IMG/VR virus record: IMGVR_UViG_2541047905_000018 | Length of the DNA stretch: 36,344 nucleotides | DNA from: a virus | Taxonomy: Duplodnaviria > Heunggongvirae > Uroviricota > Caudoviricetes | Strand: one strand, 5' to 3' | In this document: positions 1,466 to 31,353 of the stretch, piece by piece | Layout of the letters: each line of letters opens with the position of its first letter | How positions within the stretch are numbered: position 1 is the stretch's first letter | Made by a program: the position numbers and the translations under genes | The notes under the pieces: generated by a model | What the model was told of the DNA's origin: nothing | Database searches by the model: none | Seen by the model: the letters and a program-made list of their open reading frames with translations, nothing else

Positions 1466-3525
1466 TCCACAACCTCCCCAAGCTGCGCATCTGTTAGCTC
1501 TTTATGCCAGAGACGAAAATTCCTCACATGCCCAAATAAATGGCGTAATCCTGCTGTAGTTTGTCCACCAATGCGAATGGTTGCTGTACTCCGGATATAT
1601 TCCCATGTGGTTTTTGTTTCGCTGGATATACGCCCGTTACTTACTGCACATGTAGACTGATCTGACTTTACACGCATCCCCATAACCATTTTTTTCAACG
1701 ATGCGTTTTCGTTAACACGCCTATTTGATCCACCAATATCGCAATAAGGAAATCCGTCTGGCCCATCTGCCGAAGATCCGAAGCCAAGAATAATAGCCGC
1801 TCCGGTTTGATGACCGCCGGTATCAAAAACACGTGGCGCTGCATTTGGCGTTTTATACCAGTTCTTATGTACCTCACAAAGAACCGTAAAAGGAAGATTA
1901 TAAAGATTATTCTTAATCGGAACTGTAACCATATCGCTTGCGCGCGTCGCCGCCGTCGTTCCTGATATAATAAAAGATGATACACACGAACCATCCTCAA
2001 CCTGAGGGGTGGCCAGATAAATATAGTCACCAGATTCAACGACACCACCTTTTTTTGGTGCGTATTGTATTGCAGAGGTTATGTAAGTTTCTTTACTTGC
2101 TTGAATCGTTGCCTCTACAAAAATCCAGCCCGTAGCTTCATCTTTGTTAACTCGTGCGGTGAGCCTGTCGGCAGCTACACCGGTGATTTCAACCAATAAA
2201 GACCGCGTATTAACAATGGCATATCCAAGATTAGATGAAGCGCTGCCATCGAAGGCTTCAAACCTGATCCTTAACAGGAGTTCCAAATCCGTTTTAAATC
2301 TGCACGATGTCGTCACACACTTATTATCGCCTGATACATCGACAGCCCCCGAGGTTGAAACTACTGCCATATTAAGGGTTGTACTTTGCCCAATTAATGA
2401 TTCATTACAAACAAACTTTCCATAAGTAAAACCAAAACTATCAGTTCCAACCTCAGCGACATTCATATTTGCAGATTTACCCCAAGAAGCTGGAGTTGCT
2501 GAATTCAACATGTAGTTGGTTCGCTGACCTTCAATCAATAAACCTTCTTTTTCAAATCGTGGCTCATTAATTTCCGCCGTTTTCAGTTCGCCAGATTTGT
2601 TGATATATGTTGCCGTTGATGCGCGACTGAAATTAACCTGTTTATCACTGGCAACCTGAACCACATTATCACCAATCTTCACTTTTTTATAACCCGGAGA
2701 ATAGCCCGTAATCATATCCAGCGAATCATTAAAGGGTATCCACACATCCGGCAGCGGCTGTAAAACATATCTGTACGGCTCTGCTGTCTGGTTTGCGTAT
2801 TCTCTGGCAGCATCTTCACTTGCTTTTGCTGCCGTCTGGCTTGCTGCCGATGCTTTCGCCGAGTTCGCCGCCGCTGTTTCGCTCACCTTTGCGTTGGCTT
2901 CACTGTCTTTGGCATTCGTCTCACTGGTTTTCGCTGCCGTCTGGCTGGATTTTGCGTTTTTTTCGCTGGCCTTTGTGGCTGTCTCGCTATTTTTCGCGCT
3001 GGTTTCTGATTTTTTGGCTGCTGTCGCGGAGTTTGCCGATGCAGTCTGCGAGGCCGCTGCCGCCTGTGCGCTGTTAGCTGCATTCGTTTCTGAGGTTTTC
3101 GCCGCATTCTTCGATGAGGCTGCTGCCGTTTCGGATTTCTTTGCCGCCGCTGCACTCTGTGATGACGCTCCGGCATGACGTGCCACTTCATTCACCATCA
3201 GCTCAAAACGGCGCAGTGCCTCCGGACGAACATCATCCTCCGTCATGGCGCCGAGAAAATCATTCAGCGTACCTGGTCTGGAACCTTCATAGACGGTAAT
3301 GGTCCCGGCATGTGAAGGCGGAAAACCTTCAACCAGCAGGGTGACGCTGTACTGGCCATACTCAACATCCATGCTGTAACGCCCGGCTTCATCCGGATTT
3401 TCAGAGGCCACCGTGTTCACCACCACCGTGCTGCTGGTCCGTCTGGCCTTCAGCACAATGGTGCAGTTCTGTACTGGTTTTCCTGTGCCATCTTTCAGCA
3501 CACCTGAGATTTTTACTGCTGCCAT
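1462..3525 (-). CDS. stf: Side tail fibre protein (lambda Stf-like N-terminus, Ala/Ser/Thr-rich repeat shaft, divergent C-terminal domain)
   Basis: N-terminus MAAVKISGVLKDGTGKPVQNCTI... matches lambda Stf as recalled; ATG at 3525 preferred over GTG at 3531; C-terminus ends with a LamG/ConA-lectin-like motif (inference). Confidence 0.88.
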   Translation of the reverse strand: MAAVKISGVLKDGTGKPVQNCTIVLKARRTSSTVVVNTVASENPDEAGRYSMDVEYGQYSVTLLVEGFPPSHAGTITVYEGSRPGTLNDFLGAMTEDDVRPEALRRFELMVNEVARHAGASSQSAAAAKKSETAAASSKNAAKTSETNAANSAQAAAASQTASANSATAAKKSETSAKNSETATKASEKNAKSSQTAAKTSETNAKDSEANAKVSETAAANSAKASAASQTAAKASEDAAREYANQTAEPYRYVLQPLPDVWIPFNDSLDMITGYSPGYKKVKIGDNVVQVASDKQVNFSRASTATYINKSGELKTAEINEPRFEKEGLLIEGQRTNYMLNSATPASWGKSANMNVAEVGTDSFGFTYGKFVCNESLIGQSTTLNMAVVSTSGAVDVSGDNKCVTTSCRFKTDLELLLRIRFEAFDGSASSNLGYAIVNTRSLLVEITGVAADRLTARVNKDEATGWIFVEATIQASKETYITSAIQYAPKKGGVVESGDYIYLATPQVEDGSCVSSFIISGTTAATRASDMVTVPIKNNLYNLPFTVLCEVHKNWYKTPNAAPRVFDTGGHQTGAAIILGFGSSADGPDGFPYCDIGGSNRRVNENASLKKMVMGMRVKSDQSTCAVSNGRISSETKTTWEYIRSTATIRIGGQTTAGLRHLFGHVRNFRLWHKELTDAQLGEVVE
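2829..3159. repeat. Internal degenerate coding repeats in stf (KTSETNA/AAKKSET units)
   Basis: Repetitive nucleotide and peptide units visible in sequence and translation. Confidence 0.6.
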
Positions 3526-22282: not shown

Positions 22283-22798
22283 ATGGATAAAACCAGAAAA
22301 TATGACAGAGCCTTACAACTTGAAATCCTCAATGCCCTTATAGATTGCGCGCCTAACTCTTTAAACAAGGCACAGGAGCGAGACCTCATTGAGAAGTTTG
22401 ACAGTTACGATCACTTTGTGGCGTGCATGTTATACCTTGAAATGCATGGTCTCGTTTCCACCCCCTTCATACGCAGTGACACCATGGCTGGCGTTGAGTT
22501 TATCTTCTGTGCCCCTAACTGCTACATTACAGAAAAAGGAATTGATTTTCTTCTCGATGATGGCGGCTTAAGTGCGATCCTTAAAGTTCAGACCTTTCGG
22601 TTACACAGTGACACGATTGTTGCCCTTGAGGATATAATCCGTGTCGCAAATATATCTGAAGATCAGAAGAAGGGATTGATTTCAAAACTCCGAGAGCTTC
22701 CGGGAGACGCCATAAAACATTTGACCCTACAGTTACTGACTCAGGGGGTTCTGAATCTGCCGAACGCACTTCGACTAATTCAAACAACCCTCCAGTAG
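22283..22798 (+). CDS. Hypothetical protein A1 (171 aa), partner of B1; paralogue of A2 at 33611..34114
   Basis: GGAG SD 8 nt upstream; conserved with A2 (MDK..., ITEKGIDFLLDDGGL, LRELPGDAIKHLT). Confidence 0.7.
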   Translation: MDKTRKYDRALQLEILNALIDCAPNSLNKAQERDLIEKFDSYDHFVACMLYLEMHGLVSTPFIRSDTMAGVEFIFCAPNCYITEKGIDFLLDDGGLSAILKVQTFRLHSDTIVALEDIIRVANISEDQKKGLISKLRELPGDAIKHLTLQLLTQGVLNLPNALRLIQTTLQ

Positions 22799-23326: not shown

Positions 23327-23806
23327 CTACTTAATGCACTGAGTGCGGATATACTCCTGTGCCCCTTCCAGTTGCATCTGCATCGTCATCAGCCGCTCTC
23401 TGAGGGTGAAATAATCCCGTTCAGCGGTGTCTGCCAGTCGGGGGCTGGTTGCATTATCCACGCCGGAGGCGGTGGTGGCTTCACGCACTGACTGACAGAC
23501 TGCTTTGATGTGCAACCGACGACGACCAGCGGCAACGTCAGCGCGAAGAGTTTCATTTTCAGCCTTCGCATCAGCTAACTCCTTCAGGTATTTTGCATCG
23601 AGTGCAGCAACATCACGCTGGCGTATCTGCATGTCAGTAATGATTGCGGTCGCCTGGTTGAGTTTTTCCATCACATTATCGCGTTGCGCTTTGTAGGTAA
23701 TGGCATTATCACGGTAATGATTGACCGCCCACGACAGGCAGACGATGATGCAGATAACCAGAGCATAAATAATCGCGGCGACTCTGCTCACTGATCTATC
23801 CCCCAA
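23327..23806 (-). CDS. Rz: i-spanin Rz
   Basis: 159 aa, lambda Rz-like as recalled, N-terminal TM segment. Confidence 0.9.
23389..23571 (-). CDS. Rz1: o-spanin Rz1 (lipoprotein embedded in Rz in +1 frame)
   Basis: 60 aa with lipobox LVVVGC and proline-rich tract, near-identical to lambda Rz1 as recalled. Confidence 0.88.
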
Positions 23807-24321: not shown

Positions 24322-24371
24322 GGATATTTATCAGGATTTATCGGTTCCGAATACCTGGATATGTTAAGTCT

Positions 24372-24716
24372 TCAGCCCAGCGGTGGAGTCTTCAGAGAAC
24401 CAGTAATTCTTCCCGGTAGCTTTCCTTTGTAGGTTATCCACACATTCTGCGCCTCTAAAATTACGGGGCGCTTTTCCGGCGACTGCTCACCCCCTTCACA
24501 TAACCCGGCAGCAACATCCAGGAAGACCTGTCTGATGCTCCTTCTGGCTGCTGCCTCATAAAACTCCAGCGCGGCACCTTCAACACGGTCCAGCGAGATG
24601 TCCAGGTCAAAAATTTCACCGTCAAAGCGTTTTTTGTCCCGTAACGCTAAAGTTACCGTAACTTTATTCTCAAAATTGCGGATCCCTTTCACAATCAGTT
24701 CATAGTTTTGAGTCAT
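24372..24716 (-). CDS. Hypothetical protein (114 aa) inserted between pinholin and endolysin genes
   Basis: ATG 4 nt after the holin stop with good SD; no family recognised. Confidence 0.6.
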   Translation of the reverse strand: MTQNYELIVKGIRNFENKVTVTLALRDKKRFDGEIFDLDISLDRVEGAALEFYEAAARRSIRQVFLDVAAGLCEGGEQSPEKRPVILEAQNVWITYKGKLPGRITGSLKTPPLG

Positions 24717-24720
24717 TGAA

Positions 24721-24936
24721 TTACTCTCCCCGTGCAGCCTTACGCTTGTCTTCTCTGATTTTGAAGTACAGATTTGTCAGATAAGTCAGGAAGCCCAGAA
24801 CCAGACTCCCCAGTACACCAATCGCAGCCCACTGTGACGGACTGACCTGATCAAGCCACTGTAAAAACCAGTAGCCAGCACTGCCTGCGGAGGTGCCGTA
24901 GGCAATGCCCGTTGAAATTTTGTCCATGGATTTCAT
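24721..24936 (-). CDS. Pinholin (phage 21 S-like class II holin) with dual-start motif MKSM
   Basis: 71 aa, near-identical to phage 21 S as recalled; GGAGGTGA SD; two Met codons three codons apart. Confidence 0.88.
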
Positions 24937-25101: not shown

Positions 25102-25107
25102 GCATGT

Positions 25108-25137
25108 AAAAAGGCCCCAACACATGTGCGTGGGGCC
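25108..25137 (-). terminator. Rho-independent terminator on minus strand, downstream of the tRNA cluster
   Basis: GGCCCCA-11 nt-TGGGGCC followed by U5 on the minus strand. Confidence 0.5.
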
Positions 25138-25377
25138 TGAGAGTATACATGGTTTCAGTCAACTGCATGGTGCCGGGTGCCTCCCGGTGAATTCAGTACC
25201 AGCACCTGAATCCGCGATTATCCCATATACCTACTCGCTGATTGCCCATCCGCACAGGGGGATTCACCATGCCAGTTTCTTTTAACAAACTCCCCGCAAA
25301 ACAGACAACTGTCAACCGTCTGAATTGTGAGACATTTAAAAAAAAGGCCCGCAAAAGCGAGCCGGGAAAAATAAGTC

Positions 25378-25454
25378 TGGCGCGTTGTACTGGATTCGAA
25401 CCAGTGACCGATTGCTTAGAAGGCAATTGCTCTGTCCGGTTGAGCTAACAACGC
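25378..25454 (-). tRNA. tRNA-Arg (anticodon UCU)
   Basis: Hand-folded cloverleaf: acceptor GCGTTGT/ACAACGC, anticodon loop CUUCUAA, T-loop TTCGAAT, encoded CCA. Confidence 0.8.
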
Positions 25455-25467
25455 AGGGTACAGATAA

Positions 25468-25544
25468 TGGACCGCCATCGAGGACTCGAACCCCGCGCAA
25501 CCAGCTTCGAAGGCTGGTGCTCTATCCTGATGAGCTAATGGCGG
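25468..25544 (-). tRNA. tRNA-Arg (anticodon UCG)
   Basis: Hand-folded cloverleaf: anticodon loop CUUCGAA, T-loop TTCGAGT, encoded CCA; acceptor starts with C1-G72. Confidence 0.75.
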
Positions 25545-25551
25545 TATGTGA

Positions 25552-25627
25552 TGGTGGCCCTTGCTGGATTTGAACCAGCGACCTGGCGATTATGAGTCGC
25601 TCGCTCTCACCACTGAGCTAAAGGGCC
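25552..25627 (-). tRNA. tRNA with CAU anticodon (Met, or Ile2 if lysidine-modified)
   Basis: Hand-folded cloverleaf: acceptor GGCCCTT/AAGGGCC, anticodon loop CUCAUAA, T-loop TTCAAAT, encoded CCA. Confidence 0.8.
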
Positions 25628-25667: not shown

Positions 25668-25946
25668 TCATCCGTTCTGGCTGACTAAATCCTGTACTTC
25701 CCGAACCGTCTGCTCAAAACGTTCAGTCTCCAGCTCAACGCCAATTGCACGACGCCCGAGCGCCAGTGCCGCTTTCACTGTCGAACCCGACCCCATGAAA
25801 AAATCTGCAATCAGGTCACCCGGACGACTGCTAGCGCTGATTATCTGCTGCAGCATTTCTGCCGGTTTTTCGCACGGATGTTTCCCGGGATAGAACTGCA
25901 CCGGTTTATGCGTCCAGACATCGGTATACGGCACCTGCGCCGTCAC
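25668..25946 (-). pseudogene. 3' remnant of an N6/N4 DNA methyltransferase gene (C-terminal ~90 aa only)
   Basis: Translation ...GKHPCEKPAEMLQQIISASSRPGDLIADFFMGSGSTVKAALALGRRAIGVE carries the HPxxKP and FxGSGxT motifs; the N-terminal catalytic region is absent and the frame opens inside the upstream terminator. Confidence 0.6.
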
Positions 25947-26097: not shown

Positions 26098-26478
26098 TTA
26101 CTTTTTTAGCAGCCAGTCGTCCATCTCCAGTCTTACCCCCAGCACAGACAAACATCCGTCAATAAACCCTTCGGCTATCTGCATCTCAATTCGTATTGCT
26201 TTTTCGCTTTTCTTTCTCGTCCTGGCTATCTGTCTTTTTGATATTCGCAACAAATAATGAGCAATGAGAAGCGAATACTCCTCAGGTTTTTTCTGCTTCA
26301 GACGAGCAAGACAGTTTTCAATGATAAGTCCGTCATCATCGCAGCAGGCCGGACGTGGTTTAGTGGCAGATGGTAAAAGTCCTTTGAATCCGGCAGCGAT
26401 CGGAGAATAGTCCACCCCGGTGTTACCACTTGCAGCCCATGCCCCCCAGCGTTCAAGAACCATCTGAATATCACGCAT
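26098..26478 (-). CDS. Late-gene antiterminator Q (QuuD/phage 82 type)
   Basis: Start MRDIQMVLERWGAWAA resembles E. coli QuuD as recalled; Cys cluster PACCDDDGLIIENC. Confidence 0.8.
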   Translation of the reverse strand: MRDIQMVLERWGAWAASGNTGVDYSPIAAGFKGLLPSATKPRPACCDDDGLIIENCLARLKQKKPEEYSLLIAHYLLRISKRQIARTRKKSEKAIRIEMQIAEGFIDGCLSVLGVRLEMDDWLLKK

Positions 26479-26495
26479 CAACTTTCTCCACAAAA

Positions 26496-30499: not shown

Positions 30500-31353
30500 T
30501 TACGCACCTCCTTATGCTTTTCGTTCAGTTCCGAGTCCACCAGCCCGGCAACGAATACACCATCGTTGATGTAGTCGTAGAGCGATGAAGCCAGCGGAGA
30601 CTGAACTGAAACCAGCATCGGATAAAGTTGTTCTAACCAAACGCGGTGAATTTCAGCCATGTAGAGGTAAACAACGTGGGCATTGTGCGCGACACATGAA
30701 GTATCAACCTTTCCGATCAGCGCCTGTTCCATCTGGTTAAAGGCATTGATGTATGCCTCTTTGAACTGGGCAGCACGTTTACCCGTGAAACCCATAGCAA
30801 GAAACGCAAAGCCATCGCGGGTTATTTGATAGCAAGGTAGTTTGCGAGTACCGCCGTTGGGCTGGCGTACCAAAATTGATGTCTCCGCAAAATTGCGGGC
30901 ACAAAACTCTGGAGAACAATCCAAAATGCGAATCTTTTTCAGAACATCGTCATGACGTTTAGAGAAGAAGTCAGCAACAGCCAAAGAAGATGTAACAGCC
31001 TGACCATCAACGATGGCAATTTCAGGTTGAGAGAGGGTTGGGAGAGTAGTCATAGTGACAGCCCCGGTAGTCAGTTTTTTAGAAAACTCACCACATGGGA
31101 CGCCAATCACAGAGGTGGTGAGACGTACAGGGTTGGCGTTACCGGAGACTACCGAACCCGGCCCGACCGAAGTCGGCCCTGTACGCCCCACCATAATTTG
31201 GGCGTAGCAATGCTCATGACACGAAAAAACCGCATGAGCGCGGTTATGCTCAGTAATCAATTTCAGGACGCCAATCCCGGCAACGGATTTTGCCGCTGCC
31301 AGAACAATATAACGCCCAGAATTATCAGAATCAATCATTACTGGTTTGCTCAT
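30496..31353 (-). CDS. Rha-family phage regulatory protein with about 100-aa N-terminal extension (start uncertain)
   Basis: Rha-like region begins at internal Met (31053, MTTLPTLSQPEIAIVDGQAVTSSLAVADFFSKRHDDVLKKI); the ORF is open upstream to ATG 31353. Confidence 0.55.
   Translation of the reverse strand: MSKPVMIDSDNSGRYIVLAAAKSVAGIGVLKLITEHNRAHAVFSCHEHCYAQIMVGRTGPTSVGPGSVVSGNANPVRLTTSVIGVPCGEFSKKLTTGAVTMTTLPTLSQPEIAIVDGQAVTSSLAVADFFSKRHDDVLKKIRILDCSPEFCARNFAETSILVRQPNGGTRKLPCYQITRDGFAFLAMGFTGKRAAQFKEAYINAFNQMEQALIGKVDTSCVAHNAHVVYLYMAEIHRVWLEQLYPMLVSVQSPLASSLYDYINDGVFVAGLVDSELNEKHKEVRK

Follow-up and report, generated by a model that had tools for sequence, protein, structure and literature searches.

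The virus sequence IMGVR_UViG_2541047905_000018 (36,344 nucleotides (nt); referred to below in its entirety as the window) carries on its minus strand a gene for a 114-residue protein of the DUF1327/YdfR family, placed between the holin and endolysin genes of a lysis cassette. Our best explanation, which we hold tentatively, is that this ydfR gene is an optional passenger of the late operon, the N-terminal domain of its product most likely acting in the cytoplasm on RNase E and RNA and not on the cell envelope. The identity and anatomy of the family, the dispensability and modularity of the gene and the evidence for purifying selection come from the present analysis; the RNase E interaction and the co-purification of RNA come from the literature on YdfR of Escherichia coli K-12.

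Family identity and distribution

The window protein matches the Pfam family DUF1327 (PF07041) with 145.5 bits (gathering cut-off, 25; E 5.8e-43), residues 1-112 aligning with positions 1-92 of the 93 in the profile. Two PHROG families without an assigned function, phrog_406 (E 1.2e-66) and phrog_2091, are matched as well, and no NCBIfam model covers the protein. Its gene, 345 nt long, has 100% DNA identity to that of WP_000193282.1, a RefSeq 'YdfR family protein' of E. coli ZH063, where the annotated order holin-YdfR-lysozyme-lysis protein is the same as in the window. By these matches the gene is an unambiguous member of DUF1327/YdfR. A preliminary description of the window, made from its letters and open reading frames (ORFs), had recognised no family for this protein and had treated its position between holin and endolysin as unusual, and neither statement stands. 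Of 5426 complete E. coli genomes, 4349 (80%) contain YdfR-like DNA, at up to 10 copies per genome, and the 1.8-kb holin-YdfR-lysozyme-Rz block is found with at least 80% query coverage in 2185 of the 5426. The Qin cryptic prophage of K-12 has the order essQ-ydfR-rrrQ, and the same arrangement occurs in BP-4795 (ORF47), mEp460 (gp55), Stx2 phage 86, many Shiga toxin (Stx) 1a and 2c phages, and Evi. RefSeq, E. coli K-12 and many Stx phages already have annotations for the gene, its family and its place in the cassette, and the feature as such is not new.

For the family, an exhaustive HMMER search through 1.84 billion representative proteins yielded only 64 clusters. When one genome per prokaryotic species was scanned, the gene was found only in Escherichia and Shigella, besides two contigs of metagenome-assembled genomes. 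These two matches, labelled Veillonella and Bacillota (79% and 71%, respectively), have E. coli-type holin and lysozyme genes on their flanks, and we rejected them as mis-binned E. coli contigs that do not represent a spread of the family. The 3128-residue protein P0161, matched in the exhaustive search, is a G2F-repeat protein and was discarded as a spurious repeat match.

ydfR is an optional gene of S21-type lysis cassettes

In DLP12, the holin gene essD and the endolysin gene rrrD overlap, with no ydfR between them. The functional phage 933W also has no ydfR: the stop codon of S is followed after 4 nt by the ATG of R, and the endolysin uses a Shine-Dalgarno (SD) sequence in the 3' end of the holin gene. 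YdfR takes the SD-coupled slot that is held by R in 933W. It is present in 101 phage records, compared with 438 that have an S21-type holin. Because of the cassettes of DLP12 and 933W, and of these counts, we conclude with high confidence that ydfR is dispensable in S21-type cassettes and is an optional passenger there.

The gene recombines independently of the neighbouring lysis genes. Among 85 loci with an N-terminal domain at least 96% identical to that of the window protein, the holins form discrete identity classes (100, 87 and 77%), and N-terminal domains with only 60% identity to that of the window protein are found downstream of holins with 75-100% identity to the window holin. The start codons of ydfR and the endolysin are 395 nt apart in the window, and over 111 loci this distance takes at least 13 values between 307 and 1259 nt. 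The interval between the two genes (24322-24371 in the window, and its equivalents in loci L003, L006 and L007) holds unrelated convergent ORFs or extensions of YdfR to 287 residues, and is nearly empty in the window. Homologues also occur at other places in the late region: P0170 and the homologues at loci L108/L109 are encoded between tail genes I and J, and P0176 between M and L; the homologue at L107 follows Rz, ahead of the terminase region. The presence of distant homologues in tail operons and after Rz, often beside a convergent small gene, argues for a mobile late-operon passenger.

The start and stop codons of the single ORF (ATG, 24716-24714; TGA, 24374-24372) place it as the preliminary description had it, preceded by an SD sequence, with 4 nt separating it from the holin stop and 50 nt from the endolysin ATG (24321-24319); the strand, minus, had not been stated there. 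Across the junction the minus strand reads GCACGGGGAGAG-TAA-TTCA-ATG, and across the start ...GCACGGGGAGAGTAA-TTCA-ATGACT, the SD-like GGGGAGAG lying within the last codons of the holin gene. The endolysin leader (24322-24340, minus strand), an A/T-rich CCTGATAAATATCC directly before the ATG, is conserved across ydfR-bearing loci and contains no recognisable SD sequence for the endolysin. On the strand of ydfR, neither the gene nor its flanks contain a site resembling a promoter or terminator. The gene sits in the late transcript, with Q and a terminator-like hairpin upstream and the terminase genes downstream. Having no promoter or terminator of its own, ydfR therefore belongs to the Q-dependent late transcript and is co-expressed with the lysis genes, in agreement with the preliminary description. 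The GC content along the ORF (0.41-0.54) lies inside the range of its neighbours. We rejected the moron model on these grounds, ydfR lacking its own promoter and terminator and having a base composition typical of its neighbours; the near absence of reads from K-12 ydfR under standard growth was counted with this test.

In sequence and predicted fold, YdfR does not resemble a holin, antiholin, endolysin or spanin. The protein is soluble, with no transmembrane segment, in agreement with the preliminary description (the highest Kyte-Doolittle mean over 19 residues is 0.69), and it has no match to a lysis-category Pfam family or PHROG, and no fold match.

Structure and conservation of the protein

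Judged from the family alignments, the conserved unit is the N-terminal ~73 residues, which are followed by interchangeable C-termini. The AlphaFold2 model has predicted local distance difference test (pLDDT) scores of ~77-92 for residues 1-70, with β-strands at residues 5-14, 18-27 and 34-43 and a helix at 50-73. The fold of the N-terminal domain is thus confidently predicted to be a three-stranded antiparallel meander packed on one long helix (beta3-alpha). Met1, Glu6, Glu54 and Ala57 are invariant in alignments A1 and A2, and Tyr5, Leu7, Val9, Asn14, Lys18, Glu46, Gly47, Leu50 and Tyr53 are conserved in at least 90% of the sequences. Conservation is highest in the stretches Y5-E6-L7, V9-K10-G11 and, at the start of the helix, E46-G47-x-x-L50-E51-x-Y53-E54-A55; both family motifs, Y-E-L-x-V-K-G and E-G-x-x-L-E-x-Y-E-A, are present in the window protein. 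A search of solved structures with the family profile gave nothing below E 0.1.

Between divergent alleles, the pairwise ratio of nonsynonymous to synonymous substitution (dN/dS) in the N-terminal domain is 0.22-0.43, with dS reaching ~2, where synonymous sites are saturated. These values indicate that the protein is under purifying selection. Some close pairs have ratios of ~1 (1.14 for L002 and L003). The reading frame is kept across hundreds of homologous loci. The Pfam score, the dN/dS values and the retention of the frame confirm that the ORF is real and more than a chance one.

The C-terminal tail, residues 75-114, has pLDDT values below 50. Its 'module B' (...EKRPVILEAQNVWITYKGKLPGRITGSLKTPP) always ends in KTPP; beyond this point the loci differ, ending in LG, KW or ESQP directly before the stop codon or continuing to a total of 183-287 residues. 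The long forms (183-287 residues) carry a coiled-coil-like module, and many truncated, frameshifted and fused C-terminal forms occur among the family members. When the DNA of the long-form locus L007 is aligned with that of the window, L007 has ~520 nt extra at the KTPP point, consisting of a C-terminal module and a convergent ORF, and the window runs almost straight from the KTPP point to the conserved endolysin leader. Without these ~520 nt, the window therefore shows a variable cargo site in its short, 'empty' form, and the tail of its protein appears to be a remnant, modelled with low confidence, that stops at the junction of a deletion or of cargo. One 112-residue protein, P0145, has a coiled-coil 'module C' followed by 'module B' (EKRPIILEAQRVWITYKGKLPGRITGSLKTPPKW) and no DUF1327 domain, from which it follows that the tail modules shuffle independently of the N-terminal domain. 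There is no sign of an overlapping nucleic-acid element in 'module B': synonymous changes there, 14.5 over 26 sites versus 17 over 53 in the N-terminal domain, are not reduced, and Rfam finds nothing inside the ORF. An acidic fold followed by a basic disordered tail (isoelectric points (pI) of 5.1 and 9.8, respectively) would be compatible with a protein- and RNA-binding adaptor.

Relation to K-12 YdfR and RNase E

The closest characterised relative is YdfR of E. coli K-12 (b1555, P76160), which is encoded in the Qin cryptic prophage in the order essQ (an S21-type holin), a 4-nt gap, ydfR, rrrQ (a lysozyme) and rzpQ/rzoQ, and whose N-terminal domain is 81% identical to that of the window protein. 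The tails are unrelated: the 103-residue K-12 protein has ...KVESYLQHQYSFKIENPANKHERPHHKYL where the 114-residue window protein has 'module B' ending in KTPPLG. The K-12 stop codon overlaps the rrrQ ATG (ATGA), whereas the window has its 50-nt gap. The YdfR genes of BP-4795, mEp460, Stx2 phage 86 and Evi share with the window the slot 4 nt after the holin stop and the same endolysin lineage next to it, but their N-terminal domains are 56-99% identical to the window's and their 3' sides vary, with a direct run into the endolysin, coiled-coil forms of 169-287 residues, or 72-residue forms accompanied by a convergent gene.

The sole relevant functional study in the literature is that of Göpel et al. 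on K-12 YdfR (RNA Biol 2026; PMC13232886). Residues 1-72 of K-12 YdfR were recovered three times in a two-hybrid screen. This fragment gave the stronger signals with RNase E constructs, and full-length YdfR gave a signal with Rne(1-597). FLAG-tagged Rne(1-598) co-eluted with Strep-YdfR and not with the PtsN control, and the YdfR eluate contained large amounts of DNase-resistant nucleic acid. K-12 YdfR binds the same N-terminal catalytic half of RNase E as the host adaptor RapZ. Its overproduction caused no growth defect and changed few transcripts, and the K-12 gene is essentially silent under standard growth (all PMC13232886). The RNase E-interacting fragment of K-12 YdfR is the conserved N-terminal domain. 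Among the homologues, this is the nearest approach to an established function unrelated to lysis, RNase E binding being an interaction only.

By homology with K-12 YdfR, and with modest confidence, we extend the RNase E/RNA mechanism to the window allele. The gene would be an optional passenger in the Q-dependent late operon of Escherichia lambdoid prophages, in the SD-coupled slot directly behind the S21-type holin, and its product would be a cytoplasmic protein synthesised alongside the lysis proteins. The functional unit would be the 73-residue acidic beta3-alpha N-terminal domain, whose most likely binding partners, by homology with K-12, are the N-terminal catalytic half of host RNase E and, more weakly, RNase G. 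The protein would associate with RNA, and its target late in infection would be RNA metabolism (the long late transcript, for instance) and not the holin, endolysin and spanin machinery. We infer that the window allele acts like K-12 YdfR, with a consequence for phage RNA. Small RNase E contactors that redirect RNA decay are known from other phages (phiKZ Dip/gp37, T7 gp0.7 and T4 Srd); the likeness to YdfR is one of functional analogy only.

Convergent partner genes

A search with the ~98-residue convergent ORF of phage Evi (phrog_25324) alone found 14 viral and 3 metagenomic loci. When L015 is added to these, in 17 of 18 loci a short (~72-residue) DUF1327 gene lies convergent to phrog_25324 at a distance of 22-36 nt. 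The pair occupies three genome positions: between holin and endolysin (S|R), after Rz, and at the tail junctions I|J and M|L. The phrog_25324 proteins are ~61% identical where the adjoining DUF1327 proteins are only ~30-45% identical. At the exceptional locus, L127, the convergent slot between tail genes M and L holds an ORF of ~94 residues (2311-2595, minus strand) with a β-rich N-terminal part and a C-terminal helix; it has no Pfam match and no detectable similarity to DUF1327, and may be a very divergent analogue.

Other convergent ORFs accompany other YdfR alleles: an L006-type ORF in 20 and phrog_2572 in 4 of 110 sampled loci, and also an L014-type ORF. The window, K-12 and ~70 of the 110 loci have no partner gene. 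The partner families were not unified by BLAST and have no detectable relation to each other, and the partner profile found no relative in the PDB. None of the partners has a Pfam match above threshold, and the only match in PADLOC is a weak one of 16.8 bits between the phrog_25324 protein of L015 and PDC-M39B. For the window protein and the long forms P0018, P0135 and P0142, PADLOC gave no match. The repeated pairing suggests a mobile two-gene module; the association may be a functional pairing or may merely reflect an insertion hotspot.

Alternative explanations

The preliminary description had offered two possibilities, a lysis regulator or a cargo gene, and cargo fits better. A cytoplasmic regulator of lysis timing would bind the charged cytoplasmic C-terminus of the pinholin, or the signal-anchor-release (SAR) endolysin before its release, and so delay or sharpen triggering. 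The idea is modelled on T4 RIII and P1 LydB, small cytoplasmic proteins that are encoded or act with the holin. Several observations weigh for such a role. The gap between holin and ydfR is 4 nt in 105 of the 106 Escherichia loci that have an S21-type holin upstream, ydfR is co-translated from an SD sequence inside the holin gene, and the same endolysin lineage follows downstream (91-100% identity). Insertion of ydfR moves the endolysin from an SD sequence to an A/T-rich leader without one, which should alter the ratio of holin to endolysin; an indirect effect of this kind is therefore plausible. The Keio ydfR deletion is also among the hits of an envelope-leakiness screen (Paradis-Bleau 2014), for which a polar effect on rrrQ, directly downstream, would be a simple alternative explanation. 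Against a lysis regulator, functional phages and prophage cassettes of the same type do without ydfR, and the alleles reassort freely, YdfR proteins only 56-60% identical occurring with the same holins. Some homologues belong to tail operons or follow Rz, YdfR resembles no known antiholin in sequence or fold, and RNase E and RNA binding by K-12 YdfR comes without toxicity, its overproduction having no growth or lysis phenotype. T4 RIII and P1 LydB differ from YdfR in that no homology was detected, and YdfR is missing from many functional cassettes of the same type and present in tail operons. We consider a dedicated lysis regulator unlikely.

About equally doubtful is the idea that YdfR is the late half of a mobile two-gene module, in which an opposite-strand partner made in the lysogen would be neutralised or regulated by the DUF1327 protein when late transcription begins, the window copy being an orphan. 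The close convergent arrangement with phrog_25324 at three genome positions speaks for it, as do the higher conservation of the partner than of its DUF1327 neighbour, the further convergent ORFs (phrog_2572, L006-type and L014-type) that flank other alleles, and the fact that the window allele stops exactly where the long forms and partner genes begin. However, most sampled loci, K-12 and the window have no partner, the partner families are mutually unrelated as far as can be detected, so that the site may be an insertion hotspot, and the partners have neither a significant PADLOC match nor a Pfam match above threshold; the partner at L127 adjoins an ORF without detectable DUF1327 similarity. 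Less probable still is that the protein has no function, the gene being a selfish or neutral filler ORF that is held by linkage in a recombination-prone junction and whose sole effect is on expression of the downstream endolysin. The confinement of the family to Escherichia and Shigella prophages, with 64 clusters in all, would agree with this, as would the highly plastic C-terminus, the close pairs with dN/dS values of ~1 and the few transcriptome changes on overproduction. A filler ORF would not be expected to keep an intact N-terminal domain with low dN/dS over deep divergence and a confidently predicted fold, to be maintained by 80% of E. coli genomes with as many as 10 copies per genome, or to retain its own SD-coupled start in essentially every locus, and K-12 YdfR has a reproducible protein partner. 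We prefer the optional passenger acting on RNase E and RNA. In a more specific form of this reading, which we regard as improbable, the DUF1327 domain is a late effector that attaches to RNase E at its catalytic half, or to RNA bound there, and protects or re-routes the ~25-kb late transcript; it may once have been paired, in a mobile two-gene module, with a convergent partner (phrog_25324 or others) expressed in the lysogen, whose activity the domain would switch off at the transition from lysogeny to lysis.

Neighbouring genes and other features of the window

The genes on either side of ydfR are as described earlier, Pfam identifying an S21-type holin followed by a lysozyme with a SAR-like N-terminus (Table 1). 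The RefSeq name of the holin is 'class II holin family protein'. The endolysin is 94% identical to K-12 RrrQ and only 34% identical to RrrD of DLP12.

Upstream of the cassette, on the same strand, lie Q, the terminator-like hairpin, a methylase fragment, three tRNA genes and a match to the small RNA (sRNA) STnc100. The STnc100 match is full length and falls in the leader of the late transcript, after the tRNA cluster and before the holin gene. The tRNA with the CAT anticodon is assigned to Met by ARAGORN, and its homologue in ZH063 is annotated as tRNA-Ile; lambdoid phages of the Stx type have a similar arrangement, with tRNA genes ahead of the lysis cassette. The 92-residue ORF next to the tRNA genes aligns with no more than the final third of the N6_N4 DNA methylase profile (positions 137-220 of 221). 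At the equivalent place the homologous ZH063 prophage carries a complete methyltransferase gene of 1050 nt, and the window ORF is therefore a 3' remnant. In the early region, adjacent Rfam matches to C4 antisense RNA and to the Hfq-binding sRNA isrK suggest an antisense immunity or antirepressor control element of the P1/P7 type. A 171-residue ORF without a Pfam match lies on the opposite strand between Rz and the HNH/terminase genes; the ZH063 gene at this place is annotated as 'YfbU family protein', and the ORF resembles moron-like cargo in the late region.

Table 1. Positions of ydfR, its parts and other features in the window, and of phrog_25324 in the comparison loci
Feature	Position	Strand	Remarks
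YdfR-family (DUF1327) gene	24372..24716	-	114 residues + TGA stop; PF07041, phrog_406, phrog_2091
Conserved N-terminal domain, residues 1-74	24495..24716	-	three-stranded β-meander (predicted) + long helix; acidic, pI 5.1; common to whole family
Variable basic tail, residues 75-114	24375..24494	-	pI 9.8; CEGGEQSPEKRP linker + 'module B' ...VILEAQNVWITYKGKLPGRITGSLKTPP + 2 junction-specific residues (LG)
Holin/ydfR junction	24717..24731	-	SD-like GGGGAGAG 24731-24724; holin TAA 24723-24721; spacer TTCA 24720-24717
ydfR-endolysin spacer	24322..24371	-	50 nt; 'empty' form of variable cargo site
S21-type class II holin (pinholin type)	24721..24936	-	71 residues; PF04971 (Bacteriophage P21 holin S) E 1.4e-35; MKSM dual-start N-terminus
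Endolysin (phage lysozyme)	23788..24321	-	177 residues; PF00959 E 1.9e-24; Ala/Gly-rich SAR-like N-terminus
Rz spanin ORF	23327..23806	-	PF03245 E 3.6e-49
Rz1, embedded in Rz	23389..23571	-	PF06085 E 6.6e-20
Q antiterminator	26098..26493	-	PF06530 E 1.6e-52; drives late transcript holding the cassette
Terminator-like hairpin	26029-26009	-	downstream of Q
STnc100 sRNA match	25102-25301	-	Rfam, 133 bits
Three tRNA genes	25378-25627	-	anticodon CAT, Arg-TCG, Arg-TCT
92-residue ORF, methylase fragment	25668-25946	-	
C4 antisense RNA and isrK matches	31111-31299	-	Rfam, 82 bits (C4) and 69 bits (isrK)
171-residue ORF	22283-22798	+	
phrog_25324 loci (positions within each locus)	L004 2744-3040(-); L015 696-1001(-); L107 2501-2797(+); L108/L109 2498-2797(+); L096-L106; L125-L127		

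Implications

Some 80% of E. coli genomes encode the protein, whose production coincides with lysis of the prophage. Our analysis adds that the gene is dispensable and moves apart from the lysis genes, that a 73-residue N-terminal domain is conserved and recurs in tail operons, and that small convergent genes recurrently form pairs with ydfR. If the interaction with RNase E extends to the alleles that phages encode, YdfR would be a modulator of host RNA decay widespread among temperate phages. Should the more specific late-effector model prove true, this 80%-prevalent gene of the E. coli y-ome would represent a new class of temperate-phage RNA-decay or self-immunity factor.
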